64,000 nt of DNA, taken from the IMG/VR virus record IMGVR_UViG_3300049988_000286, positions 192,001-256,000 of that record, one strand, 5' to 3'. Source of the DNA: a virus. Its lineage: Duplodnaviria; Caudoviricetes. The position numbers were made by a program, and so were the translations under genes. Positions 8,201 through 50,892 of the stretch are shown piece after piece; the first letter of the stretch is position 1; every line of letters begins with the position of its first letter. The notes under the pieces are model-generated. The model was not told the origin of the DNA and made no database searches. It was given only the letters and a program-made list of their open reading frames with translations.

Positions 8201-11200
8201 TCGCACCGGGGACCGAAATCGACATCTATGAGTGGACGCGCAGTGATGTGCCGCCCTCGTCGTTCGTCGGTGAGGTTCATCCCTCTGGTCAGTACACGAC
8301 GGCGCAGATCGACAATGCTGCATTGGGCAAGGTAGTGACGGAATACTACTTCTGGGTCAAGAATCCAATCGCTACCCCGGCCGTTGCTGGCCGCACCTTG
8401 GATGCACAATCGTGCGCAGACATCATCGCGAACCCGAGCGCAGCCGGTCTACCTTGGACCGCTTTGCTCTCGCCATTTGATTTCGTCATCTCCACGGTTC
8501 GTGACCGACTCACCGATGACTCGACGGTGTTGCAGCTACAGTTGCAACTCACCAACGAGGACGAGGATATCCCGCACAGACAGTGGGTCATGCTCCGCCC
8601 CGGCGATCAGACTTCACTGCCAAGCGCACAGCTTTGGAACAAGCTTCGCGATTCGCTGGTGGGTATCGATGACAACTTTGCCGCCGTGCCTAATCCAAGG
8701 CTGCATCAACAGTCTCGCACTGGTATCGCGGCCGGTCAGAGCATGTTTGACGCGGATAAGCGCAAGGATGCCCGCCGTTCCTTCATCACGCTGATCAATT
8801 ACCAATTGGGTAAGCGCGACTTCGGCGGAAGTCGTTCGTTCGCAGAGACGGTCTTTGACACCACAACGGCTCCGCCTTCGAAGCTAATCTGGTCGGCTAA
8901 TGGCTATTCCGAAACTCTCGCTTTCTTGCCCCCCAAGGCGTTCTACGACGTTGCTACAAGCGATCAGGCAGAATTTGAGGAACTCGTCAATAGCCAGTCG
9001 CAGCCGGGTCGTCGCGTGTTGTTTGACAACCGCTACTCCGCTAACCCGAGTTGGAGCGTGTGGCGCAAGTCGAATAACAAGATCGATCTCGTTCCCATGT
9101 TCGACTACACGGTTGACAAGATCACTGATCTCGCGCGGCTCGGTGGTGGTGCGATCCCGAATAACCGTTTTGTCCTCGTGCGTGAGAACGCCGAATACAA
9201 CGGCTTCTGGACCGTGCATCGCTATCTCAATGGCGCATTCTCGATCGTTGCAGCGCAACAACTCGACACGACCGGCTTCTGGGAGTTCAACGATTGGTAT
9301 AGCGGTGATTATACCGCAGAAGACGAACCGGTCATCACATACGCCGATGTGGCGGCGCGCGATCGTGCAGAAAGCCCGGTGAGCAACCGCTACGTGAAGG
9401 TGCTCGACGACGGCTCCGGATACTGGATTTGGACGGTGTTCATCGATGATGCGTGGCAGGTTGTCGCTCGCCAGTCTGGCACTATTCAGTTGAGCGAACG
9501 CTTCTTGGAAGATCGTCCCCTCTACGGTTGGGCCAATGGCGAGGCGTCGTTCGACAAGGTGGTGCGCGAGCGCGACGGCACACTGGAGCTTCGTGAGATG
9601 ATCGGTGCCATCTTGGACAATCTTCTCTCCAATGCGGAGAAGAACGAATTGTGGTTCTCGATGGTCAACTTCGTTCATGCGCATCATGATCAGGTCGATT
9701 GGGCGTTCAAGACCAGCTTCCTTTCGGTGGCGGGCTTCAACGAGAAGCTTACAACGGCTCCGATTGCGGCGGCGGACAACACACCGCACATCTTGTCTTA
9801 CATCGATGAAGTCAAGCCGTATCGAGTCACGGTTCGTGACTTCGCCCGGAGCCTCCGCCCTGATCTTGAATCGTTCACGATGGGTGCGACGGACTTCGAC
9901 AAACCCGTCTATTACGATCCGGCGACGATGGGCTTCCGCGTCCTCGATGAAGAGCGCGTGGACGACATTGCGATTATGGAGAAGGGGGTTTGGTCACATT
10001 GGCTTCACAACGTTGATCTCCGTCGCAACATGCGCATCAAGCTGGTGTTTGACCGCGTATGGTTCGAGGATGCTCTCGATGCCGGTGCCGCTCACCGCAT
10101 CACGCAGTTCTACCAGCCCACCGCTGGGATGAAGCCGCTTGATCTTCGGGCGTTGCTCGACCTCGACTTCAAGGGAACCACCCTGTCGGGTTCGACCTTT
10201 GCTAGCACGATCTCCGATAGCGTTGTTGGCGACCACACCGCAGAGACCACCAACGGACCTGACGGGTTTGCGATGCTTGACCCACGCGTTGCCCCTGACA
10301 CGCCGGAGGAATTGGTCCGCATGGGCGCGCACGACATCCTCCTGATGCAGGTGGACGATCGTTGGGGCGCTGGTGCCCCGAAACAATTCGTCCGCAGCTA
10401 TGATGTCGCCAAGGAGCGTCGCAATAAGGTCAAGCTGCCTATCGGCTGTGTGGCCCGCTCCGTGATCGTGTTCTTCGATGGTGTTCGCGGCGTTCCCGGC
10501 GTTGATTACCTTGTTGATCTACTCGCCAATGAGCTTACCGAAGTGCTGGTCAAGCGCGGCACCCAGCGCACCAAGACGGTAGTTGTTCACGCCTTTGGAC
10601 ATGCGGGACACCGCCCGATCATCGATCAGGTGTTCACCACGGCGACAGCGGGCAGCAATCAGGTCACCATCCCTGCGTTGGTGCTCGAAGAAAGCGCCTT
10701 CTCGTTCGAGGTGCTGCGTAACGGATCGTTCCTGTCGGCTACCCGTGTCGGAAACAAGGTGGCCTTCAATGCACAGGCGGGTGAGCAGATCATCGTCACG
10801 TTCTACCGTGGCGCGGTGCTTGCCGCGACCCGCATGGTAGTGCTCGATCTGACGAACACAAGCGGGACCGACTTCCAAGCCACCCTCCCAGCGGCGGCAC
10901 GATCCTTCAATCGACCCCTCATTTCTTCGATGATGATCGAGGTTGATGGTCGCCGCCTTGCCCCGCCGACGATGTTCTGGATGACCAATCAGCGCTTCCA
11001 GTTCCGCGCCGAATGGCCAACCGCTAGTGCGATTCGCGTTGTCGATGACACTGGCAATTCGTCATCCGTGGTAGCGATGAGCAAGAACAACCTTGCAGAT
11101 GCAGAGGCGGTTCTCGCCACCAACCCGGCGGCACGCTTCACGCTTTGGGAGGGTCATTTGATCATTACCGATGCGGATGCGGATTCGCGCACCTACGCGG

Positions 11201-37123: not shown

Positions 37124-38773
37124 ATGAGCGTTGCCGGTGATACGATGGAGGTGCCGAAGGGCACGACGATCTATGATGGAACCTATTTCTACGAAGGCAC
37201 CGATTCGGTCTACTTTGGACAGGAGCCCACCGTAGGTGTTCGCGCTTCGAAGGTCACCATCGATGCCGTCGTCGATCTGTCGAAGCGCTGGTGGGCTCTC
37301 ACCAGTGAACAGGACCGCACCACCATTCGCGCCAGATTCGGCGTTTCCTTCCCCGACATCTTCACCCATGCTCGAAATAGCGGCTGGTCGTACAATCCGG
37401 TCACCAGTGGTGGTCCGCGTAACGGAGTTCGGATGACCGACGAGGAGGCGGATATCTTTCTCGTCAACCGGCGCGTTCGCATTCCCGTGTCGCGACAGGA
37501 GGAATGGGAGGCATATGCGGCAGAGTTGCGCGCCATGATCGAGACGCGCTATCCCGGCATGAAGTTCGCCAAGTGGAGTAAGGGCAAGAAGGCCGCGCTC
37601 CTTTCCGACCTCGTGCCCGCCACCGCAGCAGCACCCAAGCCCAAGGCCGAGAAGGCGATCACCAAGCGCCGCCAGATGGTCAAGGGCTCGATCTGGTCGT
37701 TCCCCGAGCCGGTCGAGATCAAGATCAACGTGGACAATCCCGAGATCGATGCGCTCATCATGAAGCGACGCGACATGCCCAACCGCACCATGGAGGAGAA
37801 AGCCGCCTACGACGTGGTGCACCAGCGCATCCTCAATACCCCCAAGACCATCGAAAAGCTGGCAGCGCGCATCCCTGCCGGAACACGCGTCGAGGTGATC
37901 GACAAGGCACAGACGAGCTATGGCAACAACGGGCTCTTGATCCCCTTCCGCATCTTGGAGCAGAAGATCGCCGTGGCGGCGGAACTGCTCGGCAAGGGGC
38001 GGTGGTATAATCCCCTCCATCATAGCGAGGGTATCCTCCTCCCTTACGCGCAGATCGAACCCACCATCGTGGCGGAGTCGATCCCCGAGACGATCTCGTA
38101 CGTTCTCCGCGATAGCGCCACGGGTGAGTTCTGGGGTGGCTGGGAGACCGAACCCGCCCGCTGGGGCACGCGCACCACCGACAAGGCGAAGATGTCCGCG
38201 ACCTTCTCGGGTGCGAAGAAGTTCGTCAACATGGCAGCCTTGAAGGCTAGCATCATGGACTTCACCGGCTACCACAAGGGCTTGGAGATCGAAGGCTACG
38301 TCGGCGAGTGGGTCGGCAGCGGCGATACCAAGATGAAGCTGTCGGAGACGTGGGAGGCGGTCGCGATCGACAAGACCACCAACACCGAGAAGGAAGTCAT
38401 CGATGTGCAGGGCTGGTACCGCGAGTTGCTGCGGCTGCGCGTCATCACCTCGAAGGTGAACAGCGCTGTGCGGGGCGTCTTCAAGAAGGTTGAGGGCAAT
38501 CCCGATTTCGCCGCCATCGTCTCGTTCGCACTCCCGGAAGACCTCTGGGACGACGAGAAGATGGAGCCCAGCGATGCCAAGCTGATCAAGGACGCGATGT
38601 CCAACGCGGAGGGCAAGACGCTCACGCACAAGACGCCCTACACCCATGCCTTCGCGGTCGCGACCGGTATGGACGCCGATCTGGTGGCGCTCTCCTATAG
38701 CGGCCCCGCTATCGTCAATGTCTACGATTCGACGACGCTCGATGAGATCGTCGTCAATGGGGAGGCGGCGTGA
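37124..38773 (+). CDS. hypothetical protein (549 aa)
   Basis: Long ORF with strong GC3 codon bias; no recognisable catalytic motif. Confidence 0.75.
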   Translation: MSVAGDTMEVPKGTTIYDGTYFYEGTDSVYFGQEPTVGVRASKVTIDAVVDLSKRWWALTSEQDRTTIRARFGVSFPDIFTHARNSGWSYNPVTSGGPRNGVRMTDEEADIFLVNRRVRIPVSRQEEWEAYAAELRAMIETRYPGMKFAKWSKGKKAALLSDLVPATAAAPKPKAEKAITKRRQMVKGSIWSFPEPVEIKINVDNPEIDALIMKRRDMPNRTMEEKAAYDVVHQRILNTPKTIEKLAARIPAGTRVEVIDKAQTSYGNNGLLIPFRILEQKIAVAAELLGKGRWYNPLHHSEGILLPYAQIEPTIVAESIPETISYVLRDSATGEFWGGWETEPARWGTRTTDKAKMSATFSGAKKFVNMAALKASIMDFTGYHKGLEIEGYVGEWVGSGDTKMKLSETWEAVAIDKTTNTEKEVIDVQGWYRELLRLRVITSKVNSAVRGVFKKVEGNPDFAAIVSFALPEDLWDDEKMEPSDAKLIKDAMSNAEGKTLTHKTPYTHAFAVATGMDADLVALSYSGPAIVNVYDSTTLDEIVVNGEAA

Positions 38774-38967
38774 TGGGGAAGCTGTCCGAGATCGACGCGA
38801 TGAAGAACAACATCGAAACGATCCTCTTCGCCGCCGATCAGCAGGGCAGCGATCTTCACCGACGCATCGATGCGCTGGTGGAGCGTCGCGCGTGTAGCCG
38901 CGACATGGTGGCGGAGATCGGTGCCATCGTGGAGGCGGCGTTCGTGCTTGGAAGGACGGCCCGTTGA
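38773..38967 (+). CDS. hypothetical protein
   Basis: GGAGG SD; TGATG overlap. Confidence 0.6.
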   Translation: MGKLSEIDAMKNNIETILFAADQQGSDLHRRIDALVERRACSRDMVAEIGAIVEAAFVLGRTAR

Positions 38968-39359
38968 ACAGTCACAGTCAGCTTTGGCGCATCACCGGCG
39001 CTGCAATCACGGGCACACTGTTTGGCGTGTTCGCGGTGCCGTGGCTACACCCCAGTTCCGATCAAGGAGAACCGGGACAAGTCATGGCCACGTCAGCGAT
39101 TGTGCGCGGCGAGGGCGGCGCTATCGCGGAGATCGGTAGGGCGGTTCGATCATTCACAACGACCGACGCCCCGGTGCTCATCACGTTGGCACCGGGGGAG
39201 TCAAGGAAGCTGCTGTGCGGCCTCTATGGTCGGGATGGTGCGCTGCTGACGAGCGCATCCATTTATGCCAGCGGGAGCATCACCGACGTGCTGCGGTTCA
39301 ATCCCGGCAAGGATGATCTACCGGGCCGACTGCAATGCCGGTTCGAGGCGCGAGATTAG
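38964..39359 (+). CDS. predicted membrane-anchored protein
   Basis: N-terminal hydrophobic segment ITGAAITGTLFGVFAVPWL; TTG start. Confidence 0.55.
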   Translation: MNSHSQLWRITGAAITGTLFGVFAVPWLHPSSDQGEPGQVMATSAIVRGEGGAIAEIGRAVRSFTTTDAPVLITLAPGESRKLLCGLYGRDGALLTSASIYASGSITDVLRFNPGKDDLPGRLQCRFEARD

Positions 39360-39691
39360 GCGTATTCGGCTCGCCTCTCGCGCATGGAGGCGAGACGGCG
39401 CTGGCGAGGCTTCACGGTGAAGGCCGGGATATCACCCTCCAATTCCGCCTCCAGTGCAGCGATCTGATCGTCCATCAGCAGCGCGGCGCGGCTACGGAAA
39501 TTCTCGATCACGAGGCACCCTGCATCGACGGGGTTGGTGTGCCCCTCAATGGCGCGAAGTTCGTTGTCAAAGCCGAACGGGAACCACTGGTCACCGAGAC
39601 GCTCGATGTAGCCCTCCGCCGGAGCATCGTCACAGTTGCCCATGGCGATGTCGAGACGGTTGTCGCTGTTCGTCTGAATAAGAGTGATCAT
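39356..39691 (-). CDS. hypothetical protein
   Basis: GGAG SD; about 111 aa. Confidence 0.55.
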   Translation of the reverse strand: MITLIQTNSDNRLDIAMGNCDDAPAEGYIERLGDQWFPFGFDNELRAIEGHTNPVDAGCLVIENFRSRAALLMDDQIAALEAELEGDIPAFTVKPRQRRLASMRERRAEYA

Positions 39692-39758
39692 GCTGTGCTC
39701 CGATAAATCCTGTAGTTCGGTGTCTATCAGATATAAACGATTATACAAGCGTAAAGTT

Positions 39759-39796
39759 CAATAATTGGGGCGACGATCCACAGACCGCCGCCCCAA
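39759..39796 (-). terminator. intrinsic terminator of the pol/clamp operon
   Basis: 14-bp stem TTGGGGCGGCGGTC-TGTG-GATCGTCGCCCCAA-TTATT; its G.U pairs form only on the minus-strand RNA. Confidence 0.75.
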
Positions 39797-39872
39797 GCCT
39801 CCCCCGCAGTCGCTAGCCGCGACAATGGAAATCACCTCCTGATTCGAATTAACCGGCAGGAGAGGCGGTATT

Positions 39873-40616
39873 TCATCCGATCGTTTGCCGGAGGAAATAC
39901 TTGTAGGTGCCGTGATGAGTCACGACCTCTACACCGAGCAGACCCTTGCTGGTAAACATCAACCGAGCCTCACTCGCATTCTGTGCGATCTTCATCAGCA
40001 TCAGAAACTTATCAACCGGGAAGTTGAGAACACCCGTAAGAGTACCCACCACCTTCTCGGCAAAAACCATAGAGCCGGAATGCGACGACGATGCCTCCTG
40101 ACCAAAGGTCATCTTGAGATCACCATCTTCGACCGAGACACCGAAATTCTTGTCGATCGCCGAATACAGTCCAGCAAACTGCGTGAATTCCGCCAGCTTC
40201 GCCTTGTTGATCTCGTGGAGGACGATCCCCCACGGGATCGAGGCGATCTTGGCCTGATCCGGAACATGCTGGATATCCATCAGCTTGAAGACCGACTTCG
40301 AGCCCGCACCCTTGAATTCAAACTGATCCAAGACCGTCTTGTCCCCCACCGTGCGCGAACGCACGTTGAAGGTCGCGTCCTCGGTCTGGTAGTTGGCAAA
40401 TCCGAGCAACCCCGAGAGCATCTTGAGATTGGTGATCCCAAACTCACCATCGAGCACAGGTGAGGGAGTGGCGAGCACACCCTCGATGAACAGCGTCTTG
40501 TCAGTGTCGAAAGTCTGCACCCTCGTCTCCGAAGCTGTCCCGGTCACCTTGATGATCTCCACCCCGGCAACGGCACAATGGCGAACCATGTCTTCGAGGT
40601 TGGCTTGAATAGTCAT
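39873..40616 (-). CDS. DNA polymerase sliding clamp (gp45-like), putative
   Basis: 247 aa directly downstream of the polymerase C-terminal gene; IIKVTGT.SET, GEFGITNLKML and SKGLLGVEV...G.YKYFL. Confidence 0.65.
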   Translation of the reverse strand: MTIQANLEDMVRHCAVAGVEIIKVTGTASETRVQTFDTDKTLFIEGVLATPSPVLDGEFGITNLKMLSGLLGFANYQTEDATFNVRSRTVGDKTVLDQFEFKGAGSKSVFKLMDIQHVPDQAKIASIPWGIVLHEINKAKLAEFTQFAGLYSAIDKNFGVSVEDGDLKMTFGQEASSSHSGSMVFAEKVVGTLTGVLNFPVDKFLMLMKIAQNASEARLMFTSKGLLGVEVVTHHGTYKYFLRQTIG

Positions 40617-40674
40617 TCCGTGTCTTTCTCTCTATAAGTCTTTGATACAGGGGGAGGGGTCAGGCGTGCAATAA

Positions 40675-41721
40675 TCAAAAGGAGATAAATTCGTCGCCGC
40701 TATGAACGAAGCTACCAGACAAATCCCACTTCATCGGTCCTACCAGATTATCCAGCTTCTTATCGATGATGACTTCCTCCATGGCGGCATGATCGAACGG
40801 CAAATCCTTGAACCACTTCGGCAGATGCGGCTCATCTATGGGGTAAGCGATAGAATCCATCTTCGACACCGTGGGGAGAAGCTTGCAGACGATGATGCGC
40901 GACCCATCGGTGATCCTCATCGAGAACTTGTCGTTGTGGATGTCGAGCATCTTGTTCCAATTCTCCGACGCACGGACGTGGCCCGGCACCGTCGATTTGG
41001 CCTTCTCACCCTTTCGCCGAGCATCAGTAAGCCCCATCGAGGCCGATCGAGCCATGATGCGACGATACTTGGTCAAGTTGCTGACCTTCTTCGGACTGCC
41101 CTTCTCCCACGCGGGTCTAGCCTTGAAGGCAGTCCTGAACTCGCGAATGTCACCGATGATCTGATCCTGACTGGTGCCTTGCAGGACATCCATGAGGACT
41201 TGCTCAAGGAAGGCTTGCATGAACTTCGGCGTATCAGCACGCTTGAGGTCGAGCCCCATCGCTTTCAACTTACCGGGCTTGTTGCCAGTGTCGAGGCGCT
41301 TGCCTTCAAGATCGTAGATCAACCCGCCGTATTTCTTCTTCTTGATGAAGAGCATCCGGGAGGCCACCAACTCACGACCAGCCGCGATGATCGCACCACG
41401 CTTCAACGATGTGTTGAAAGTGCGCGCCATGAATTCGGGGAAGGTCGCGTTGACGTTATCCGCCACCTTGTCATAGATGGCAATGTAATCCTCACGCGTG
41501 CAATCCTCACCCATCATATAGGCGGCAGAGAAGTAGCACGAATCGGTATCCGCGTAGCAGATCGCATCACCGGTATAGTCGTACTCACCAGTGAGTTCCT
41601 GATTCACCTGCGCATTCATATGCCGAACAATGGAACGACCCGTGAGGGTCACTGATTGTCCCATACGAGGGTCGGCCAGCCTCATTGCCTCGTTAAGGAG
41701 CGCCCCGTACAGCGAGTTAAG
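40675..41721 (-). CDS. family B DNA polymerase, C-terminal gene, exon 2
   Basis: LNSLYGAL, GQSVTLTG, YADTDS (motif C), KKKYG and GLDLKRADTP. Confidence 0.92.
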   Translation of the reverse strand, partial: LNSLYGALLNEAMRLADPRMGQSVTLTGRSIVRHMNAQVNQELTGEYDYTGDAICYADTDSCYFSAAYMMGEDCTREDYIAIYDKVADNVNATFPEFMARTFNTSLKRGAIIAAGRELVASRMLFIKKKKYGGLIYDLEGKRLDTGNKPGKLKAMGLDLKRADTPKFMQAFLEQVLMDVLQGTSQDQIIGDIREFRTAFKARPAWEKGSPKKVSNLTKYRRIMARSASMGLTDARRKGEKAKSTVPGHVRASENWNKMLDIHNDKFSMRITDGSRIIVCKLLPTVSKMDSIAYPIDEPHLPKWFKDLPFDHAAMEEVIIDKKLDNLVGPMKWDLSGSFVHSGDEFISF

Positions 41722-41971
41722 CCATGATGTTCCAAGCCGATCGCCACCGACTTGTTGTCCTTGTGGACAACTGCATGTTGCCATGCAGAGCAGACCATAT
41801 CATAGACTCTTCGTGAGAGCCCCCGCCCGTTTCGGCCCGCTTGGGCCTACTCGCTTTCGCGATGGTCGTTGAACCTTCCCTTGCGGGCTTGGCTGCTGAT
41901 TGTCCCAGAGGGATGTCCCAGCAATTAGAGCGGTTATTCGATGGCCGTCGCCGACCAAAGCCTCCAGATTA
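41722..41971 (-). ncRNA. group I self-splicing intron (250 nt, no ORF)
   Basis: 5' exon ends in U and the intron ends in G. P AAUUGCUGGGA, Q AAUCAGCAGCC, R GGUUCAACGACCAU, S UGAUAUGGUC; P7 GACCAU/AUGGUC; P3 CCGCUC/GGGCGG; GNRA-capped P2 and P9. Removing it restores ARKIL-LNSLYG in frame. Confidence 0.9.
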
Positions 41972-42154
41972 AAGGATTTTTCTCGCTTGCTGTCGTTGGT
42001 CCCAGAACCCGATCTGCCCTGCTACCCATTCACGCTTCTCTTCGATCGCTACGATCTTGCCGTCTTGCAGTTCCAGCCCATGCTCCGACATCAACTCGGC
42101 AATGGCGCTGGCATCTCCTGCTTCGATCAACTGACCAAGCTTCTCAATTTCCAT
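41972..42154 (-). CDS. family B DNA polymerase, C-terminal gene, exon 1 (61 aa)
   Basis: GGAGA SD and ATG; ends FWDQRQQARKIL, the first half of motif B, followed by an intron-encoded TAA. Confidence 0.85.
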
Positions 42155-42273
42155 ACGGTGTCTCTCCACTCATCAGAGACAATCTACTTAACTTCGGCTC
42201 GTTCCCACAATATGATTCGCTATTGTCTTGACAGTTCCCTCAACTCTGCTACACCTGTTGAGAAGGAACCTCT

Positions 42274-42813
42274 ATGCCCATTATCCTCATTGGCTGTTTC
42301 ATCGGTGCCGTGCTCGGTGTGGGCGCGATGAGTCTATGGACGGGTATGAAGGCGCACCCCAAGGCGGTGGCGATCATCTGGGCCATTTCCTCGTTCATCG
42401 CCCTCATCTGGCACCCTGTCCCCAAGGGCCGGGATTTCCACGCCGTGGGGATCATCGGTCAGTCCGAGGCAACCGTGGTGGCGGCGATCGGTGAGGCGCA
42501 GACCTGTTCACCGTTCTTCGACGAGATCGACCCCGACAGTGGGAAGACCGCGTGCTACTATCAGGGCAACACGACGGTCATCTACCAGCATGGTCGCTCG
42601 ATCCGGATCACGAGTGGTGCTCTCGATGGCGTCCCCTACGCGACCTCACCGGAGTATTACGCCGTGGTTACCGAGCATCTTGGTTTCGATGCCAGCCGCC
42701 CCGTGGTGGCCACCATCGACAAATTGGTTTGGCAGATCGACGGCGGCACGCTAACCGTGTTGTCGAACCAGCGTCTCGACACTGCGGGGATCACCATTGA
42801 CGCCACATCTTGA
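42274..42813 (+). CDS. predicted membrane protein (inside the pol split)
   Basis: Two N-terminal hydrophobic segments; AAGGA SD. Confidence 0.65.
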   Translation: MPIILIGCFIGAVLGVGAMSLWTGMKAHPKAVAIIWAISSFIALIWHPVPKGRDFHAVGIIGQSEATVVAAIGEAQTCSPFFDEIDPDSGKTACYYQGNTTVIYQHGRSIRITSGALDGVPYATSPEYYAVVTEHLGFDASRPVVATIDKLVWQIDGGTLTVLSNQRLDTAGITIDATS

Positions 42814-43255
42814 TCAACTGGTTGATCTTCCGTCGTGGGATCATGGGCTGAAGATTGACCGGCAGATCGATGATGTGCGCCGGGAAGTCCAGAGTGCGAT
42901 CGGTGGTTTGGAGCCCGGTCGCGAGGCCGATGACGTGGATCAGGCCTTCGACAATTACATCGCCACGGTCGATAAGCTCCGTGACCTCTACGCAACGGCA
43001 GAGGGCATTTTCCACACTGTGCGGGAGGCCTACGATGAGGCGATCACGATCGCGGATCGGTTGTTCGAACTCCAACCATGGCGGATGACGATCTCCGATA
43101 CCTCACCTCATTATAAGGCCTTGCGCGGAGCACCGCCGATGTGGCTTGAGGAAAACCTTCACGACGCCGTGGAGATATTCCCGCTCGCTGGTCACCTCAT
43201 AATTGTTTTCGGCAACGAGGCCGACATGACGCTCTTTCGCCTCAAGTATGCCTGA
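42797..43255 (+). CDS. hypothetical protein (small paralog family domain at the C-terminus)
   Basis: MWLEENL...IVFGNEADMTLFRLKY. Confidence 0.65.
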   Translation: MTPHLDQLVDLPSWDHGLKIDRQIDDVRREVQSAIGGLEPGREADDVDQAFDNYIATVDKLRDLYATAEGIFHTVREAYDEAITIADRLFELQPWRMTISDTSPHYKALRGAPPMWLEENLHDAVEIFPLAGHLIIVFGNEADMTLFRLKYA

Positions 43256-43817
43256 ACGTGAAGCCCGAGGCGGTGGTTCCCATCGTCTGGGGGCGTGACA
43301 TTTCGATATCGCTCGCTTGGGGGATGGGCTGCGACATTCCAATATATTCGCTCCGCAGCGCGACTTCCTTGACGATCACGAAGGGTGCCGGGGTGGCGTT
43401 TCCGAGCGGCGTCGATCCCAGCCACACATCGTTGGTTTGTCGGAACAGGAGATCGCCGTGCCGAATGGGTGTGGTGAGGCGGCTGATACCCATGTGAGAG
43501 ACGAGAGTGCGATCCTCTCCCGTGTAGCGCAGAATGGCTCCGGTCTGTGGAGGGGCGACGGTGATCTCCCCCATGGCGTCGGAGAACTGCCCGGCTGCTT
43601 CGAGGGCACGACGTTGATCCGCGAGACGGCAATAGGCCAGTAGCGCATTGCGGTACCACGGCAGGGGCACAGCGGCGGTTTCAATGTCACTGGGGCCGAT
43701 GATGCCAAGATCGATCTGGGTCATCATGGCGGAGATTTCTGGGCGGCGCTGCGCTTCACTGCGAAGCAACGCCACGGGGTCGCGCCCGTTCATACCGACG
43801 ATCTGATTAGGTTGCAT
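43242..43817 (-). CDS. hypothetical protein
   Basis: GGGAGA SD; about 191 aa. Confidence 0.6.
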   Translation of the reverse strand: MQPNQIVGMNGRDPVALLRSEAQRRPEISAMMTQIDLGIIGPSDIETAAVPLPWYRNALLAYCRLADQRRALEAAGQFSDAMGEITVAPPQTGAILRYTGEDRTLVSHMGISRLTTPIRHGDLLFRQTNDVWLGSTPLGNATPAPFVIVKEVALRSEYIGMSQPIPQASDIEMSRPQTMGTTASGFTFRHT

Positions 43818-43828
43818 GGTTCTCCCAT

Positions 43829-43865
43829 AAACAATTAGGACCGCACCCGAAGGCACGGCCCTAAT
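43829..43865 (-). terminator. cUUCGg-capped hairpin/terminator
   Basis: ATTAGGGCCGTGCC-TTCG-GGTGCGGTCCTAAT-TGTTT with three G.U pairs. Confidence 0.7.
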
Positions 43866-43893
43866 ATGGAGGTTCGGAGTCTAGCGTGCAATA

Positions 43894-44343
43894 TTACACT
43901 GCCATTAGGAGTGCCGCCACATCGTTCTGCCGCTGCATCTCGACCTCTAGCTTCTGCTCGACCATCTCGTTGTATTGGTCGCGAGTGCCGGAAGTCATGA
44001 AGTTGTAGTTGTCGAGGACTTCTGGCATGTCGGGGTATAGGTTGGTGCCGATCCACACTCCGCCGCCAACGGCGTAGAGTAGGTCTCCATCACGGACCTC
44101 TAGGCCGAGATGGTTGTCATCGGCGGGGATCATGACGGTCGGGCCATCGTATTCCAAGATACCACCAATCTCGTCGATCGCCCTGTCCTCCATCGTATCC
44201 GGGAGTAGGTGATCGAGAACGCTCATCGTGACGCGGTTGCGGGCACTCGCGAGGGTGCGCACCAGCGATTTGAAGGCGGTGGGGGTGTCGCCACCGATCG
44301 TGGTGGTCGGGGTATCGAGGTCTGCGGTTGCCTGTGCAAACAT
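43894..44343 (-). CDS. hypothetical protein
   Basis: AGGAGA SD; about 149 aa. Confidence 0.65.
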   Translation of the reverse strand: MFAQATADLDTPTTTIGGDTPTAFKSLVRTLASARNRVTMSVLDHLLPDTMEDRAIDEIGGILEYDGPTVMIPADDNHLGLEVRDGDLLYAVGGGVWIGTNLYPDMPEVLDNYNFMTSGTRDQYNEMVEQKLEVEMQRQNDVAALLMAV

Positions 44344-44735
44344 GGTAGTATCTCCTATACTGGCAAGCCCGCGTTGTGGGGCTTTCTGAATTAGTATAGG
44401 TATAACTACCGGGAGCGAACTATAGTTCCCTAATTGCAACTTTTATTTGATTATTTTAGAACATGGAACGAGGAAGTGGACCAATGAACAAGCAGCAAAG
44501 AACAATTCGGCCTAGCACATATAGTGAAAATGGCTCACAATTGACAAGCTACAATAATCTCATAACACCGCAGCAACCGACAATTGTCCGAAGACTGGTA
44601 TGCGGTGATCAAGAGAATGCCCTATTCGGGCTTTGCTGAAAGTGTCTACCACACGCCGGGGCGTGATCGAGAAACATGATCCTACCTACACTCGCTCCAT
44701 GCCCCCCGCAGGGACCGAAGCCCCTGCGAAGCCCG

Positions 44736-45344
44736 TTAGTCGATCAGCTTCTCGGCGCGGAGAACCGCAACCTCCTCATCCGCGAGGGTGATCGTCGTGT
44801 TGAAATTCGTGGCGGTCAGGTCGTCCTTCAAGGACGCGCGCTGGCGCTTGAGCACCGCGATGAGGTCGGCGATGAACCCCTTGGTCTCCGCTCCCATGAT
44901 GTCGATGGTGAGCGACTCGGTGCGGACCGTGTATCGCTCACGGCTTTCCGGCGCGTCCAGATCGGCGCGCATCTTCGCGACCTTGCGATCAAGGGCGGCG
45001 AGATCATCGATCGGCGTGGCGTCGTCGAACAGATTCTCCGGCTTCGCGACCGCAGTAAGGCGCAGAAGCTGCTCATCGATCGCGGCGACGAGCGCCAGAT
45101 TGCCATCGACGCCCGCCGCGCTGTTGGCGATGCCCACCATGGCGCGGATGCGGTAAGCAGCGGTGATCGCCCCCTGCTGGCGCTCCAGCGCGGCGAAGAA
45201 GGCGACGCGGGTCGCATCCGCCGCCTCGGTAGCAGTGATCTCGCTGTAGGCGGAGATCGAAGCGCGGGGGTTGGGCGTAATGGTCTTCGCCACCGCGAGC
45301 AAGGCACGCGACAACTCCGACGCCTTCTTGAGAGTGATCTTCAT
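44736..45344 (-). CDS. hypothetical coiled-coil protein
   Basis: 202 aa MKITLKKA...; upstream sigma70-like promoter. Confidence 0.7.
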   Translation of the reverse strand: MKITLKKASELSRALLAVAKTITPNPRASISAYSEITATEAADATRVAFFAALERQQGAITAAYRIRAMVGIANSAAGVDGNLALVAAIDEQLLRLTAVAKPENLFDDATPIDDLAALDRKVAKMRADLDAPESRERYTVRTESLTIDIMGAETKGFIADLIAVLKRQRASLKDDLTATNFNTTITLADEEVAVLRAEKLID

Positions 45345-45377
45345 GGTCCGGTCCCCGTTCGAATATCGTTTCGCCGT

Positions 45378-45408
45378 CCATCTAGACGGCGGGCAGAAGG
45401 ACTGTCAA
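45378..45408 (-). promoter_or_regulatory. alphaproteobacterial-type sigma70 promoter TTGACA-N17-CTAGAT inside an inverted repeat
   Basis: Minus strand reads ctagatggcggg TTGACA gtccttctg cccgccgtCTAGAT. Confidence 0.55.
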
Positions 45409-45427
45409 CCCGCCATCTAGAAAATAA

Positions 45428-47158
45428 TCACGCCTTATTCTGCGCCGCCGTAATCGCTAGTGCGAGGTCGGCATCGACCTCAATCCCGTCCTTGAGTTTT
45501 GCATAGAAGCCCTTCTTCTTCTGCATGGTTTGGCGGTCCGAGTACCACTTCGCCAAAAGCTGCGGGATGATCCCCTCCTGATCGGTTCGGAAGATCGTCC
45601 CGTTAGCAGAGATGCACAAATTGCTCCCCGGTCGGAAAATGAAGTCGTATAATTGGCGTCCCGACATCACCTTGGTGGTCCCGTCATCGAAATCGATCGT
45701 GATCGGTGCACCATCCTTGGCCATCATGTGATCAACCTCCAAGGCCGCGAAGATGCCATCCCACGCTTCTGCGCGAGGCACCTTGTTGGCGATCCGTTGG
45801 TCAACGAGCGCCTTTGTCTCGTCGAGGCGAATCTGGCCCACGATCGTCTCCGGAGAGAGGTTGAGGGCGCGGATAGTCGAGGGATACAGGGAGTTGATGT
45901 CCACGGCGGCGACGTGATCGTGCAAGCCCATCTTGGGCTTGGCCACATAGGCACCCACCACCGGCTTTTTCTTGTTATCAAAGCCGCCCTCCTCGTCGTC
46001 CTCATCCTCGTCGTCCACCTCCTCCTCGATCACCTCCTCGACCCGTGGTTTACGATTGGGGGCAACGAGACCCATCTCGTGCATTTCAAGGATGATGGCC
46101 TGTTCTACCAGCGCCACCGATCCCATCGTCGTCTTTAGCTGCACGCAGTTGACGTGGGCGATCTGATTGGCGAGTTCGATGAAGCGCTTCTTCTTGTCGA
46201 TCTTGACCAGCAGGGCAACGTCCTGTCGGGAGTATTCAACGAACTTGTAGAAGTCCTTCTTGTACAGGTCGTCGAGGGTGCCCTCATAGGGGATTTTGTT
46301 GTCCCCGACTTCGACTTCACCGATATAGTCGAGGCGATAGCTGTGTTGCTGCTGGGGGTTGTGCTTCTGATAGAGTTCCAGATAGTCGAGGTGGACGCGC
46401 CCCATCAGGTCATAGGACTCGTGGTCCTTACCGAATTTGGGAACCATGCGCTGGCGCGGCTTCTGTCGCCATAGACATAGGTCTCGCGTAGCATCCTCGT
46501 CGATAATCCGTTTGATGCGGTTTACGATGTAGGGGATATCGAACAGCGTCGAGTTCCAGCCCGAGAGCACATCCACGTCCTCGATGATCTGCATAAAGGC
46601 GCGCAGAAGTTCCCGCTCGTCATCGAACAGGAAGGTGTCGGGGAACTGATCGCAGATCGCCTGTGCCTCCTCGGTGGTAAGCGTCGGAGGCTTGAGCGCG
46701 AGGCAGATCAATCGATCAACATGCGAGAGGTCGATCGAGATGGCGGTCACAGCATTGAACGGGTCATCGACGGGCGCGTAGCCGCGCTCCGCATGATAAC
46801 CGGTTTCGATATCGAAGAAGCCCACGTTGAGGACGGGCGCGTTGACCCCCTTGTAGTGCTTCTCCAGTGCGCGGAAGACGGGATTGATATCCGACTCGAA
46901 GACTTTGTGCCGGGGTTTACCGTTACGATCGAGATCGTTGGTGAACCGTCCCAATTCCTTGCGGAATTTCTGACCGTCGTTGGTTTTGAAAATCTTGCAC
47001 GCATCGCCGTACATGGATCGATGAGAGCCCGCCGGATGCGAGTAGTAAAAGACATGCTCGCAATCATGTTCGACGAGGTGGCGGACGCCATTCACGTCAC
47101 GCTCGGCAACTTGAATGACGTTCCGCTTGGCGTTGTATAGGGCATCGATGTAAGACAT
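45428..47158 (-). CDS. family B DNA polymerase, N-terminal gene (exonuclease plus palm motif A)
   Basis: ExoI FFDIET, ExoII GWNS..FDIPY, ExoIII Y...DV, motif A DINSLYPS and GIIPQLLAKWYSDR; stops in the fingers region. Confidence 0.93.
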   Translation of the reverse strand: MSYIDALYNAKRNVIQVAERDVNGVRHLVEHDCEHVFYYSHPAGSHRSMYGDACKIFKTNDGQKFRKELGRFTNDLDRNGKPRHKVFESDINPVFRALEKHYKGVNAPVLNVGFFDIETGYHAERGYAPVDDPFNAVTAISIDLSHVDRLICLALKPPTLTTEEAQAICDQFPDTFLFDDERELLRAFMQIIEDVDVLSGWNSTLFDIPYIVNRIKRIIDEDATRDLCLWRQKPRQRMVPKFGKDHESYDLMGRVHLDYLELYQKHNPQQQHSYRLDYIGEVEVGDNKIPYEGTLDDLYKKDFYKFVEYSRQDVALLVKIDKKKRFIELANQIAHVNCVQLKTTMGSVALVEQAIILEMHEMGLVAPNRKPRVEEVIEEEVDDEDEDDEEGGFDNKKKPVVGAYVAKPKMGLHDHVAAVDINSLYPSTIRALNLSPETIVGQIRLDETKALVDQRIANKVPRAEAWDGIFAALEVDHMMAKDGAPITIDFDDGTTKVMSGRQLYDFIFRPGSNLCISANGTIFRTDQEGIIPQLLAKWYSDRQTMQKKKGFYAKLKDGIEVDADLALAITAAQNKA

Positions 47159-47196
47159 AACACTACTTTACTTGCCCTAAGGCTGATTCGCCAATA

Positions 47197-47439
47197 TTAC
47201 TCGCAATGAGACCAAGCCAGTTTGAACAACGTGGCATCATGCTCGTCTTCGATACGGACCACTGCTGCGATCGTGAGACCATTCTCCCGGTGGATGGAGA
47301 AGAAATGTCGGCCCTCAATATTAGCCTTGATCCAACGCTTCACTTCTGCGATTTGGAACCGGCCTCTGATCTTACCAAGACCGAAGCAGGACCAGTTGGC
47401 TTGTTCAAGCCTCCGCTTCCGGGTTCTGCTTTCCACCAC
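47197..47439 (-). CDS. hypothetical protein (small paralog family)
   Basis: EVKRWIKANIEG...RIEDEHDATLFKLAW. Confidence 0.6.
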   Translation of the reverse strand: MVESRTRKRRLEQANWSCFGLGKIRGRFQIAEVKRWIKANIEGRHFFSIHRENGLTIAAVVRIEDEHDATLFKLAWSHCE

Positions 47440-47992
47440 TGCTAAACTTCTTCCATACGGTTAGATCATATTCCGCCACAGTCATCCCGCTCGCGTCGGC
47501 GAGTTCAAGGAAGGCGGCTTCCAACGATGCGTAGAGTTTGCCCGCCGGGGGCGTTGCCTTGGGGGCCTCGATGCCGTGTTCGCGCAGATGGCGGAGAACA
47601 TGCGTGTCGAGAGCGGCGTGGCGGACACCGGGGCGTGACATCATTACGAACATGCGAGCCGTCTTGGGGCCGCAGCCGTGAATGGCTTCGAGATCGGCCA
47701 CCGAACACGAGCGGAGATCGAGCGCCATGCTTTCGAGAAACTGTCGAGAGAGCCGGGTGTACTGCCCGAGGCGGCTCGACTTGACCGCTTCCAGCATGTG
47801 GTCCTCACCGATGCCACGAAGCTTCTCGAACGGTGTCTCGCCAGTGTGGGCGAGCATGAAGTCGTTCAGGAGGGCGGCTTGCCGAGAGGCTTTCTTGCCC
47901 GCCACCACGCAACTGAACAGCCACCAGAGTTGAAGTTCGCCGTCAGTGCGCTCGTAGTTGATCACATCTGTGGGATCAATGAGATAGTCCAT
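47405..47992 (-). CDS. HhH-superfamily DNA glycosylase (Ogg2-like)
   Basis: HhH motif IHGCGPKTARMF with Lys, and ALDTHVLRHL with the catalytic Asp. Confidence 0.75.
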   Translation of the reverse strand: MDYLIDPTDVINYERTDGELQLWWLFSCVVAGKKASRQAALLNDFMLAHTGETPFEKLRGIGEDHMLEAVKSSRLGQYTRLSRQFLESMALDLRSCSVADLEAIHGCGPKTARMFVMMSRPGVRHAALDTHVLRHLREHGIEAPKATPPAGKLYASLEAAFLELADASGMTVAEYDLTVWKKFSSGGKQNPEAEA

Positions 47993-48200
47993 GATGATCC
48001 TTCAATAGCTGCTCGTATAGGTTGTAGAGGTTGTTGAACTTGAGATCGTAGAGACTACGCAATCCGAGCAGGATATTGGCGGTCTCATCATCGGACATTT
48101 CGGGACCGTCGCAGATAGCGCGGTAGAGAACGTCGATGTCGTCGGTGATCTGCCAGCACGACATAAGGGGTTGTTCTAGGTCGTTGAGCTTTGCCACCAT
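47976..48200 (-). CDS. hypothetical protein
   Basis: 74 aa; GGAGA SD. Confidence 0.7.
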   Translation of the reverse strand: MVAKLNDLEQPLMSCWQITDDIDVLYRAICDGPEMSDDETANILLGLRSLYDLKFNNLYNLYEQLLKDHHGLSH

Positions 48201-48241
48201 CGTTCTCCAACAGGGGGAGGATCGCTCCTCCCCATGGGGTT

Positions 48242-48499
48242 TTAGGCGCGACCGGCGACGACGAGGATTTCCTCGATGATATCGACGTTCTCCTTGGTGT
48301 CTTCGAGCGACTGCTTGTGCGCAGCGCGGGCAGCACCCATAAGCTGCGAGGGCTTGACGCCAAGCTCTTCCGCCAAGGTCTTCGACAGATCAGACAGACC
48401 ACCCTTGAGGTCTTCGATTTCGAGGAAGATTCGAAGACTCTCGTCGATGAAGGTCTTCACTTTGGCGATCGAGGTGTTCGAGAGAGTGTCCAGAGCCAT
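48242..48499 (-). CDS. DsbA/GapR-like small dsDNA-binding protein
   Basis: 85-aa helical protein; coiled coil followed by LAEELGVKP...AAR..HK pattern. Confidence 0.55.
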   Translation of the reverse strand: MALDTLSNTSIAKVKTFIDESLRIFLEIEDLKGGLSDLSKTLAEELGVKPSQLMGAARAAHKQSLEDTKENVDIIEEILVVAGRA

Positions 48500-48604
48500 T
48501 ACTTTATTCCTGCATACCAGTGATTTGGTGAACCAGTATCTACAGGGCGGGAGTCCTTGGCGTCAAAATTGAAATCACCCGTGGTTGATTTCCCGAACTC
48601 TGGG

Positions 48605-48632
48605 TTGACGGCTTGGGGGAGTGTGCTACACC
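48605..48632 (+). promoter_or_regulatory. alphaproteobacterial sigma70 promoter
   Basis: TTGACG-N14-GCTACACC, close to the Caulobacter TTGACG...GCTANAWC consensus. Confidence 0.55.
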
Positions 48633-48655
48633 AAGGCGATCAACAGGAGCGCGAC

Positions 48656-48970
48656 ATGGATTTCGTAAACGACCTTCTCGCCGCCAAGGCGGACTTCAAC
48701 GCTGGGGCGATCGACGTGCCCACCCTGACGGACCGGATTGCAGACGTGCGCGATGCGATCATCGCCGCGCCGGAGACCGATAAGGTAACGGCGTTTGACA
48801 AGATCGTGATGGCGTTCTTCGAGCCTTTGATCGAACCCGAGGAAGAATACCAGCCCGGCATCCTCTATCTCGACAGCGATTCGATGCACTACACCCACGA
48901 GGCGCTGGCAAAGGCGATCTGCGGCAAGAGGTATTACGAATTCGAGAACGGCCTCTACGAGGGTGGCTAA
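48656..48970 (+). CDS. hypothetical (early) protein
   Basis: AGGAG SD; 104 aa. Confidence 0.7.
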   Translation: MDFVNDLLAAKADFNAGAIDVPTLTDRIADVRDAIIAAPETDKVTAFDKIVMAFFEPLIEPEEEYQPGILYLDSDSMHYTHEALAKAICGKRYYEFENGLYEGG

Positions 48971-48977
48971 TCCACCT

Positions 48978-49202
48978 TCATAGCATCATCGCCAAAATGG
49001 CGAGATGCTCTGTCTCGCAATCGATCACAACCTCGGTGCCTCGATCGCGTTCGAGGTTTTTAATATACCATTCGCCGATGACAGACTCACTGGCGATCAG
49101 AAACGCGAGGATGCGGCTCATGCAAGGCATTGGATTGGCACCCGAGATGATCACCTTGGTGCCGTCTCGCGTCATCGACAGGGCAGGTAGCGCGTGATCC
49201 AC
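48978..49202 (-). CDS. hypothetical protein (divergent paralog family member)
   Basis: EWYIKN...IDCETEHLAILAMML; start uncertain. Confidence 0.5.
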   Translation of the reverse strand: MDHALPALSMTRDGTKVIISGANPMPCMSRILAFLIASESVIGEWYIKNLERDRGTEVVIDCETEHLAILAMML

Positions 49203-49471
49203 TTCGGATATCCCTGTGGCGTCATGATGATGTCGGGCACCGCGCGCGCATCGTCACCAGTCTCGATCCAACCGCTGCCGTAGCAGAGGTCGCAGATCGC
49301 CCGCTTCGAGCGAAACGACACCATATCAATCTCGGCGTTCCACTGACCGTGCTGGTGACAGACCGGACACGGTTCATCAAGGGCACCGTTGCGGGGTAGC
49401 AGCGGGATGTTGAAGAACGCCAGCGAGTGCTCGGGCGTGATCCCCGTCTTGATGTCGCTCGCGTGTGCCAT
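49172..49471 (-). CDS. small zinc-finger protein (two CxxCxxxG motifs)
   Basis: CPVCHQHG and CDLCYGSG; AAGGAG SD. Confidence 0.65.
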   Translation of the reverse strand: MAHASDIKTGITPEHSLAFFNIPLLPRNGALDEPCPVCHQHGQWNAEIDMVSFRSKRAICDLCYGSGWIETGDDARAVPDIIMTPQGYPKWITRYLPCR

Positions 49472-49518
49472 GAAGGTCTCCTTACAGTTCCCTTACCGTA
49501 AGGAGACCCAATGATCAA

Positions 49519-50892
49519 TTAGATTTTATCACCGGGCGCGAGGCCCCTGACGGCGTTGAACGACGGGAAGCGCAACGAATAGTTGTTCGTACCTCGCTCC
49601 TTTTCGTTCTGGGTCAACTCATCGGCGTGAACCTCAATGATGTAGCCCATGATCTCTCCGGGATTGGCCCAGAAATGACGACGCTGCTCATCGGACATAC
49701 CCGTAGAGACCTTGGTGCGGATGAAGCGGCCCTCGTCCCGTCCCTCACAGACCAGCGCCCCCAAGGTGTCGAAATACTTGCCCTCCGGCTCGCCCTGTTC
49801 CATCCCCACGACGGTGAGATCGACGGCGATGAAGGGCTTCCACTTCAACCAATTGGTGCCCTTCTTGCACACATAGGGGGCCTCGGTATCCTTGATCATG
49901 AAGCCCTCGATGACGTTGGTGGCACCAGCGGCGGCAGCGGCTTCCATGACCTCGCGCTGGAACTCCGCCATCCGGGCCTTGCCCTCGTCGGTGGAGAGAT
50001 CGACCTCGATCTTGGGGAGCACGCTCACCGCCGTCATCGACAACTCCTGCATGGTGGGGAGGAGTGCTACCAAGGTCTCGTGGCGGCGACGCTGGGTGAT
50101 CGCGCATTTCCCGGTCTTGAAGTCAGCGAGTGGAACGATGTCGAACAACGCAACCTTGTGCTCTTCTGTCTTCACGCCGGTATTGCGGTTTAGCTGCGAC
50201 ATCAACTCTTGAAAGGTCTGGCCCACCACCTCGCCATCGAACACCACCGAAGCGGGAAGATGCGGGATCAACCGCTCGAATTCGGCGCGGAGGTGGGGGA
50301 AGTTGTCGTTCTGATTGCCGTTGCGGGTGTATTGGGTGACCGTCTTCGACTCGATATCCACGACGGTCAGGAGCCGAACGCCGTTCAGCTTCACATCGAG
50401 GAACTTCTTCCCGCTCATCTTCTTGGGATGCTCGTCCCCCGACTTGGCAAGCTGGCACGAGAACACCGGTACCATATACTGGCTCGCCTCCGGGGTGCCG
50501 ATCGCGGTCAGGACGCGGTTGACCGTCGAGTGATCGAAGCCCGCCTTGAAATCCTTGAGCAAGATGCGGCGGTAGAAGGTGTTCCACACCTCGCTATCGC
50601 TACGGTCGGCGGCTTCGTGCATGGCCGCGATGGCGGCGTGCCCGGTAAGCTCGCGCTTCCGCAACCGCTCTGCGAATTTCATGAAATCTGTGAAGGAGAG
50701 ATCACCCCCACCCTCGTCTTCCAGCACCGTGACCTTCTTCATCCCGTAAGTCAGGGTGGGGTCGAGGCACTGCCGAGCCGCCGCGAAGAACTCACGGTGA
50801 CCATTCTCGAAGGACTCGCGGATCAGCCGTTCCTTTTCCAAACGGCCCGACGTAGCCTCGACGGCCTTGATCAGCTTTACGGCATCAGTCAT
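49519..50892 (-). CDS. lig: ATP-dependent DNA ligase
   Basis: Motif I KLNGVR, FDGE, LFDIVP, EGFMIKD, WLKWKP and SLRFP. Confidence 0.93.
   Translation of the reverse strand: MTDAVKLIKAVEATSGRLEKERLIRESFENGHREFFAAARQCLDPTLTYGMKKVTVLEDEGGGDLSFTDFMKFAERLRKRELTGHAAIAAMHEAADRSDSEVWNTFYRRILLKDFKAGFDHSTVNRVLTAIGTPEASQYMVPVFSCQLAKSGDEHPKKMSGKKFLDVKLNGVRLLTVVDIESKTVTQYTRNGNQNDNFPHLRAEFERLIPHLPASVVFDGEVVGQTFQELMSQLNRNTGVKTEEHKVALFDIVPLADFKTGKCAITQRRRHETLVALLPTMQELSMTAVSVLPKIEVDLSTDEGKARMAEFQREVMEAAAAAGATNVIEGFMIKDTEAPYVCKKGTNWLKWKPFIAVDLTVVGMEQGEPEGKYFDTLGALVCEGRDEGRFIRTKVSTGMSDEQRRHFWANPGEIMGYIIEVHADELTQNEKERGTNNYSLRFPSFNAVRGLAPGDKI

Follow-up and report, generated by a model that had tools for sequence, protein, structure and literature searches.

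Family B DNA polymerases encoded by two separate genes are known from T4-like phages, five of which have natural splits at the tip of the fingers, with spacers of 2 bp to 3 kb, the tip being an insertion hot spot (PMC3061061). In Aeromonas phage 25 (NC_008208) a homing endonuclease gene, seg43(25), lies between cistrons 43A and 43B, and 43B carries a group I intron (25.g43B) without an open reading frame (ORF) (PMC2993671); the two products co-purify and are active (PMC2988022). Phages 44RR, 31 and 65 and Acinetobacter phage 133 also have a bicistronic gp43 split in the variable finger tip, and when Pfu polymerase is divided at the finger tip its fragments associate stably in a 1:1 ratio and show wild-type kinetics (PMC3061061). 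PhiKZ likewise makes its family B polymerase from two distant genes, DNAP-N and DNAP-C (gp82 and gp50), whose products form a stable 1:1 complex that has been solved by cryo-EM (bioRxiv 10.64898/2026.09.30.755723), and in the PA5oct/MIJ3 jumbo phages a related polymerase gene is interrupted by an HNH gene (PMC6892783). Here we describe a split polymerase in a 64,000-nucleotide stretch of phage DNA (the window), corresponding to bases 192001–256000 of virus record IMGVR_UViG_3300049988_000286, which is 499,572 bp in length and rated complete. We consider it likely that two polypeptides, encoded by genes that we refer to as polN and polC, assemble as one enzyme and are the sole family B (gp43-type) replicative polymerase of this phage. 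The arrangement is of a known kind, the gp43A/gp43B type, and what is new here is its presence in a second, distant giant-phage group with a larger spacer that lacks a nuclease gene.

Both genes are on the minus strand of the window. The first, polN (45428–47158), has a TGA stop codon at 45428–45430, and its 576-residue product ends in ...AAQNKA and contains the Pfam domain DNA_pol_B_exo1 followed by the first third of DNA_pol_B (the Pfam scores are 68 bits for PF03104, and 43.5 and 42.3 bits for PF00136, with a cut-off of 23). The exonuclease motifs are intact, with Exo I FFDIE at residues 114–118, Exo II WNSTLFD at 201–207 and Exo III YSRQD at 309–313, and polymerase motif A is present as DINSLYPS at 420–427. 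RB69 gp43 matches polN with an E value of 1.7e-36 in an alignment that reaches approximately residue 487, in the first fingers helix. The second gene, polC, begins at an ATG at 42154 preceded by a GGAGAG ribosome-binding site, and is composed of exon 1 (41972–42154; 61 aa), which encodes a small domain of the fingers tip, then the beginning of the second fingers helix, and ends in ...RKIL, an ORF-less group I intron of 250 nt inside motif B (41722–41971), and exon 2 (40675–41721; 348 aa), which encodes motif B, the palm with motif C, the thumb, and a C-terminal tail ending in ...EFISF. The spliced product is 409 aa long, with motif B (KILLNSLYG) at residues 59–67, motif C (YADTDS) at 117–122, and the thumb. 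The presence of Exo I–III and of motifs A, B and C, together with profile and sequence similarity, places the pair in family B (gp43-type), and it shares 40–50% amino acid identity with the polymerases of Klebsiella phage RaK2, Agrobacterium phage Atu_ph07 and Sinorhizobium phage Phosso. Each gene is present once in the 499,572-bp genome. An earlier note on this DNA had described both genes in these terms, and its account agrees with the translation, Pfam domains and motifs of polN, and with the Rfam intron match and restored reading frame of polC.

The position of the break was located by aligning both halves with the continuous polymerases of Phosso (1012 aa), RaK2 and Xanthomonas phage XaC1, the comparison with related jumbo phages that the earlier note had proposed. 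The two long fingers helices are separated by the break, which follows the R/K helix and precedes motif B: polN extends 30 aa past WYSDRQTMQ (residues 538–546 of 576), and polC starts 58 aa before KILLNSLYG. The fingers tip bears a lineage-specific insertion, and the break occupies a variable linker of this insertion, between a short helix (GVEIxxDLAxxL) and a small domain (LxELVxxxDxxxIxxFMxEHxL...) from which the motif B helix follows; the break aligns to the breaks of both phage 25 and Atu_ph07. In an AlphaFold model of a continuous relative (L019) the break corresponds, via the alignment, to a loop between helices 563–573 and 583–591, in a fingers region with pLDDT values of approximately 86–92 over residues 561–620 and of about 90 locally at the break. 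The gap between the cistrons (42155–45427) is 3,273 nt in length, so that a break in the fingers domain with the halves about 3.3 kb apart, as originally described, is borne out on both counts.

Comparison with the described systems reveals both close parallels and clear differences. The anatomy of phage 25 is the same as that of the window, with a fingertip break (43A ends in ...ILASRGIKTDH and 43B begins with MELELF...), a gene between the cistrons, and an ORF-less group I intron (Rfam 64 bits) in motif B of the C-terminal cistron, which bears out the likeness to the finger-broken gp43A/gp43B of Aeromonas phages 44RR and 25 noted previously. However, phage 25 is a member of the Straboviridae with a genome of about 160 kb and a 0.8-kb spacer holding a single homing endonuclease gene, whereas the window has 3.3 kb with five non-nuclease ORFs. 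Phages 44RR, 31, 65 and 133 are classical T4-like phages, while the tip insertion in the window is different, longer and lineage-specific, and one of its relatives has a spacer of about 43 kb. Split Pfu is broken near the finger tip between the fingers helices, like the window polymerase, but is an artificial archaeal construct with a short tip, and the PhiKZ polymerase belongs to an unrelated family and is broken in a palm insertion. A likeness within the same giant-phage group is that of Atu_ph07 (48% identity), in which the same linker is broken between gp276 and gp277, annotated in GenBank as two 'DNA polymerase' coding sequences (CDS) of 565 and 417 aa; these are adjacent, with an 18-nt spacer and neither insert nor intron, and the paper describing this phage lists both as polymerases and never uses the word 'split'. 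The suggestion that the split polymerase belongs to a different lineage therefore stands relative to the Aeromonas T4-like phages, but its novelty is reduced by the split CDS of Atu_ph07, the five T4-like splits and PhiKZ. We also considered Sinorhizobium phage AP-J-162, whose 'polymerases gp112, gp127' might represent a distant split; the role described for gp127 is nucleotide binding, and the case is not informative.

That the break or the insert is an artefact of assembly has to be considered, since the genome is a metagenome assembly, but we assign this a negligible probability. First, a 49-kb Logan contig from a second assembler spans the stretch with zero differences. Secondly, contigs from another study bridge both junctions (45201–45671 and 41865–42554), which excludes the assembly error at either break that the earlier note had named as a possible refutation. 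Thirdly, the gene order at the junctions is common to two related loci (L008 and L009), and an NCBI contig (SECT01000847.1 in GCA_004144765.1; locus L039) corresponds to window positions 43076–45195 at 98% identity. This last contig was binned in a metagenome-assembled genome (MAG) of Oxalobacteraceae, although its 98% identity to the phage insert makes it most likely that phage DNA was misassigned to a bacterial bin. The first 96 nt of the contig repeat 45202–45297 in inverted orientation, which is probably an assembly artefact at the contig end.

The two genes show signs of retained function. Of the listed strain differences, 20 in polN and 12 in polC exon 2, all 32 fall at the third position of a codon, and this shows that both halves are under strong purifying selection. 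Both halves are also 52–76% identical to their relatives over their whole length. These observations bear on the proposal that the locus is a decaying or sub-functionalised remnant, with polN acting as a stand-alone exonuclease, polC inert, and another polymerase replicating the genome. Such a proposal can draw on the minimal split Pol III alpha reported for group 2.2 jumbo phages and on the Pol III subunits annotated in Atu_ph07, but it accords poorly with intact polymerase motifs throughout, with the substitution pattern and whole-length identities above, and with an intron that is complete and precisely placed, features that are relevant only if polC must be translated; we regard it as very unlikely.

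A two-chain polymerase would work as follows. The 576-aa polN product would supply the proofreading exonuclease together with the N-terminal domain, and also motif A and the first helix of the fingers. From the 409-aa spliced polC product would come the fingers-tip domain, motif B on the second fingers helix, the thumb, and what remains of the palm, including motif C. These chains would assemble non-covalently in a 1:1 ratio, as for Aeromonas gp43A/gp43B and finger-tip-split Pfu, the break lying in a variable linker of the tip insertion where a chain break should cost little. Once the gene had been broken, the new intergenic site would have taken up accessory genes, and the intron would have to leave the polC mRNA before polC protein could form. 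The heterodimeric replicase proposed in the earlier note is well supported, if indirectly, by the fingertip break, the single-copy halves with intact motifs, the purifying selection, the recurrence among relatives (see below) and the absence of a rejoining device.

The absence of a rejoining device is relevant to a further possibility, that read-through, or trans-splicing of either protein or RNA, restores the halves to a single chain. There is precedent in the related PA5oct/MIJ3 group, where the fractured polymerase genes are broken at motif C and carry split-intein blocks that rejoin the protein (PMC6892783). In the window, where the break is at the fingertip, each cistron has its own stop (polN) or start (polC). 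No split-intein blocks are present at the ends concerned (...AAQNKA in polN and MEIEKLG... in polC), no intein or nuclease domain is found in either half or in the insert ORFs with Pfam or PHROGs, and there is no intron-like RNA at the end of polN, the polC intron being the single Rfam intron match in 38000–50000 at E<=1, with no second intron. Two opposite-strand genes and a terminator-like hairpin intervene, and the halves in the relative with the longest spacer are 43 kb apart. We think rejoining highly improbable, even more so than a remnant. A large insertion at motif C (YxDTDS), which is not a fingertip split, is seen in L025 (11645–14423), L035 (11678–13114) and L004 (PA5oct; 3998–9224), the last of which aligns with intein sequence there.

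Twenty-eight related IMG/VR loci were surveyed. The nearest cultured relatives are Phosso and Atu_ph07, with 48–50% identity, followed by the RaK2 group. Among the IMG/VR loci, the same linker is broken in L008 (75% identity), L009 (66%), L017/L034 (61%) and L018 (57%), while most others are continuous genes of 928–995 aa, and two contigs end inside the gene. The spacers vary greatly in length, from 18 nt in Atu_ph07 (18–24 nt when L018 is included), through 0.8 kb in L009 and 3.3 kb in the window, to about 43 kb in G002, the record containing L034; the contig of L008 ends before polC. In G002 the halves are on the same strand (L034 10001–11692 and L046 about 7960–9750), the upstream neighbours of the window's polN are kept at its polN, and the clamp gene is kept downstream of its polC; the polN locus of G002 recurs in a second sample at 99.98% identity. 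From this series of spacers it follows that the halves need neither co-transcription nor translational coupling, and the series provides a natural test set for how subunits encoded by distant genes are kept in balance. We note that downstream of polN in the G002/G001 phage there is a 211-aa ORF (L034 12040–12675) whose C-terminal part resembles, by eye, a Ros/MucR-type regulator.

A tree built from the N and C parts, with the tip left out, requires at least four changes in the split state. An approximately unbiased (AU) test rejects a single clade of the six split rows other than Atu_ph07 (p 0.007), a group that was named after the tree had been seen, and because its sister Phosso is continuous, the split in Atu_ph07 is a separate change of state on the tree. 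The fingers tip itself occurs in a long form, with 60–80 extra residues, and a short form (in an alignment that includes L010–L016, L021–L023 and L030–L032), and within the 18-row clade containing the window every continuous gene has the short tip and every long-tip gene is split.

Several points weigh against our interpretation of polN and polC as one two-chain replicase formed by splitting. All of the continuous forms in the 18-row clade are short-tipped, so that the gene may have been split ancestrally and then re-fused in frame several times, by deletion, a history no less possible than repeated splitting. A minimal split Pol III alpha has also been reported in the jumbo phages of group 2.2 (PMC7824862), and the family B enzyme thus need not be the sole replicase. 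The AlphaFold model of L019 represents a continuous relative only and is poor overall, with a mean pLDDT of 66.8 and a pTM of 0.40, and no RNA runs carrying the locus are listed. The assembly, activity and independent expression of the two chains are what we infer from this analysis. Split polymerases of this type illustrate the modularity of family B enzymes and where a chain break is tolerated, and with the window and its relatives, repeated breakage at the fingers tip is now seen in a second, distant phage group. For annotation, it is best to name such genes as the subunits of a single two-subunit enzyme and to mark the intron.

The 3,273-nt gap contains five plausible ORFs, of which three share the strand of the polymerase genes and two run the other way. 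ORF 1 (44736–45344, minus strand) encodes a helical 202-aa phage protein of unknown function. ORF 2 (43894–44343, minus strand) encodes 149 aa from the ATG used in the NCBI record, or 181 aa from an upstream TTG, and shares a C-terminal domain with ORF 3 (43242–43817, minus strand; 191 aa). ORF 4 (42797–43255, plus strand; 152 aa) has no homolog in our searches, and ORF 5 (42274–42813, plus strand; 179 aa), which is divergent from polC, has an N-terminal membrane anchor and an Atlas fold resembling domains of the CAP_assoc_N/DUF4309 type. A sixth long ORF, at 44676–45506 on the plus strand, appears to be an antisense shadow of ORF 1. The earlier claim of at least five unrelated ORFs on both strands is thus correct as to number and strand, but two of them are not unrelated, as they share a domain. 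Relative to the NCBI contig, ORF 2 (which has an NCBI gene call) differs at 0/0/4 sites by codon position and ORF 3 at 1/3/10. None of the five matches a Pfam family (at E values of 0.01 and 10) or a PHROG, and HNH, GIY-YIG, LAGLIDADG and other nuclease families are among those without a match; searches of large databases with these ORFs returned only near-identical copies, all from one NCBI MAG contig.

Several of these genes nonetheless have relatives at corresponding positions. A homolog of ORF 1 lies directly 3′ of polN in L008 (30% identity, E 5e-14), and tblastn finds others as hypothetical proteins in the accessory regions of Caulobacter phages CcrColossus and CcrPW; in the Atlas this protein falls with unnamed viral clusters at 0.95–0.96 (TM 0.79). 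The N-terminal part of ORF 3 is homologous to a 95-aa ORF after polN in L009 (33% identity, E 8e-11), and ORF 5 has a weak syntenic homolog divergent from polC in L009 (25% identity, E 3e-6). Because of these homologs in the inserts of L008 and L009, we conclude that the insert is inherited within the clade formed by these two loci and the window, and that it consists of ordinary accessory genes and is very probably not a homing cassette. The closeness of the parallel with phage 25 gives the alternative some appeal, namely that one of the ORFs is an unrecognised free-standing homing endonuclease that cuts intron-less polC and so mobilises the ORF-less intron, with the split as a by-product of its invasion, and strains do appear to vary around the intron, with loose or contig ends at 41721 and 41865. 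However, no nuclease family is recognisable in the five ORFs with PHROGs, or with Pfam even at E<=10; three of the insert genes have homologs in the L008 and L009 inserts, yet the polC of L009 has no intron; ORF 1 has its homologs in Caulobacter phage accessory regions; and no repeats beyond chance flank the insert, as might be seen with a mobile element. A homing cassette is thus an unlikely explanation, though the least unlikely of the alternatives that we have weighed against a two-chain enzyme.

In its conserved core (P1–P9) the polC intron matches Rfam RF00028 over the full model (1–253) with a score of 69 bits (E 3.9e-16; gathering score 50). At the 5′ splice site CCUU directly precedes UAAUCUGGAGG and pairs with GGAGG, giving the usual U.G pair, and the 3′ end is ...CAUGG with the terminal G at 41722. 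In the unspliced gene a TAA stop codon is directly 3′ of the 5′ splice site, and removal of the intron creates the junction RKIL/LNSLYG, which restores precisely the reading seen in L009 and G002, whose genes have no intron. The intron is predicted from these features to be self-splicing. Its core is similar to that of introns found in many unrelated phages, in terminase genes among others. Since the nearest split relatives for which polC sequence is available, L009 and G002, lack the intron, it is a mobile element in its own right that came later than the split, a promiscuous phage intron that reached motif B independently. For the same reason, the earlier proposal that the split and the intron jointly control the stoichiometry or timing of replication is unsupported. 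The phage 25 intron is located at NSLYGAL/GN, 6–7 codons from the window site KIL/LNSLYG, and the intron sequences also differ, which suggests independent events; an independent recurrence of a split gene with an intron at motif B would mean that mobile introns prefer the most conserved DNA of polB as their target. Contigs in other samples end or diverge at 41721 (the exon 2 boundary), 41865 (in the intron) and 42155 (just upstream of the polC start), and these contig ends, which are the only data of this type, hint weakly at strain variation in intron and insert content.

The earlier note also placed promoters and terminators between the two genes. For terminators this holds in part: a stable 14-bp hairpin without a U tract is located directly after the polN stop codon and upstream of the next gene (45381–45421, minus strand), where an 86-nt stretch folds at -32.1 kcal/mol (z -2.9), and a terminator-like hairpin of 14 bp, with a UUCG loop and a U-rich tail, lies between ORFs 2 and 3 (43834–43865, minus strand). 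The promoters fare less well, with 2 sigma-70-like matches in the region compared to 3.9 expected, which is not above chance, and no T4-type late promoter (TATAAATA) is present in the region. A word common to two intergenic sites, TATTGCACGC, was tried as a candidate signal and did not generalise. Because both hairpins and two opposite-strand genes lie between the halves, co-transcription of polN and polC is unlikely.

The leaders of the two genes share a bipartite sequence element, which is the sole hint of coordination between polN and polC that we found. In both, GCGAATCA is followed by AAGTWAAGTAG, after 10 nt in the polN leader and 18 nt in the polC leader. Upstream of polN the elements are GCGAATCA at 47184–47191 and the 11-mer AAGTAAAGTAG at 47163–47173 (both minus strand), the latter 4 nt upstream of the ATG. 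The polC leader occupies the divergent intergenic region (42155–42273, minus strand), with GCGAATCA at 42213–42220 and AAGTTAAGTAG at 42184–42194, followed by a hairpin at the ribosome-binding site and the ATG at 42154. AAGTWAAGTAG has exactly two copies in the 499,572-bp genome, one per leader, and three of its six near-matches are located 3–4 nt before an ATG. In dinucleotide-preserving shuffles of the two 90-nt leaders, 2/3,000 share both words in order, a test that was defined after the motif had been seen. In L008, AGTAGAGTAG is kept at the same distance before the polN start. The shared element could be a promoter -10-like signal for transcripts with short leaders, or an operator. An operator would be comparable to the translational operator of T4 gp43, and would provide coordinated or autogenous control. 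Combining these observations, we offer tentatively a scheme in which the fingers tip of Atu_ph07/RaK2-type phages is a recurrent breakpoint (with its at least four state changes in the same linker) that subsequently became a landing site for accessory DNA, with the bipartite leader element perhaps keeping the cistrons in step; as a whole we consider this scheme doubtful.

The hairpin in the polC leader has a 7-bp stem (UGUCUCU...AGAGACA; 42155–42185, minus strand) that overlaps the GGAGAG ribosome-binding site, and it may regulate translation, judging from this overlap; taken as a whole, the leader folds no more stably than shuffled sequences do (z 0.05). To the 3′ side of polC is a clamp-like gene (phrog_12062; 39873–40616, minus strand), which is 3′ of the polymerase in nearly all relatives and is annotated as a sliding clamp in Phosso. 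Within polN, an acidic run (EEVIEEEVDDEDEDDEE) precedes motif A at residues ~373–392 (window ~45980–46040) and is rich in D and E in the relatives too; it attracts unrelated short contigs when reads are aligned to the window, and this accounts for the loose ends at 45988–46021.

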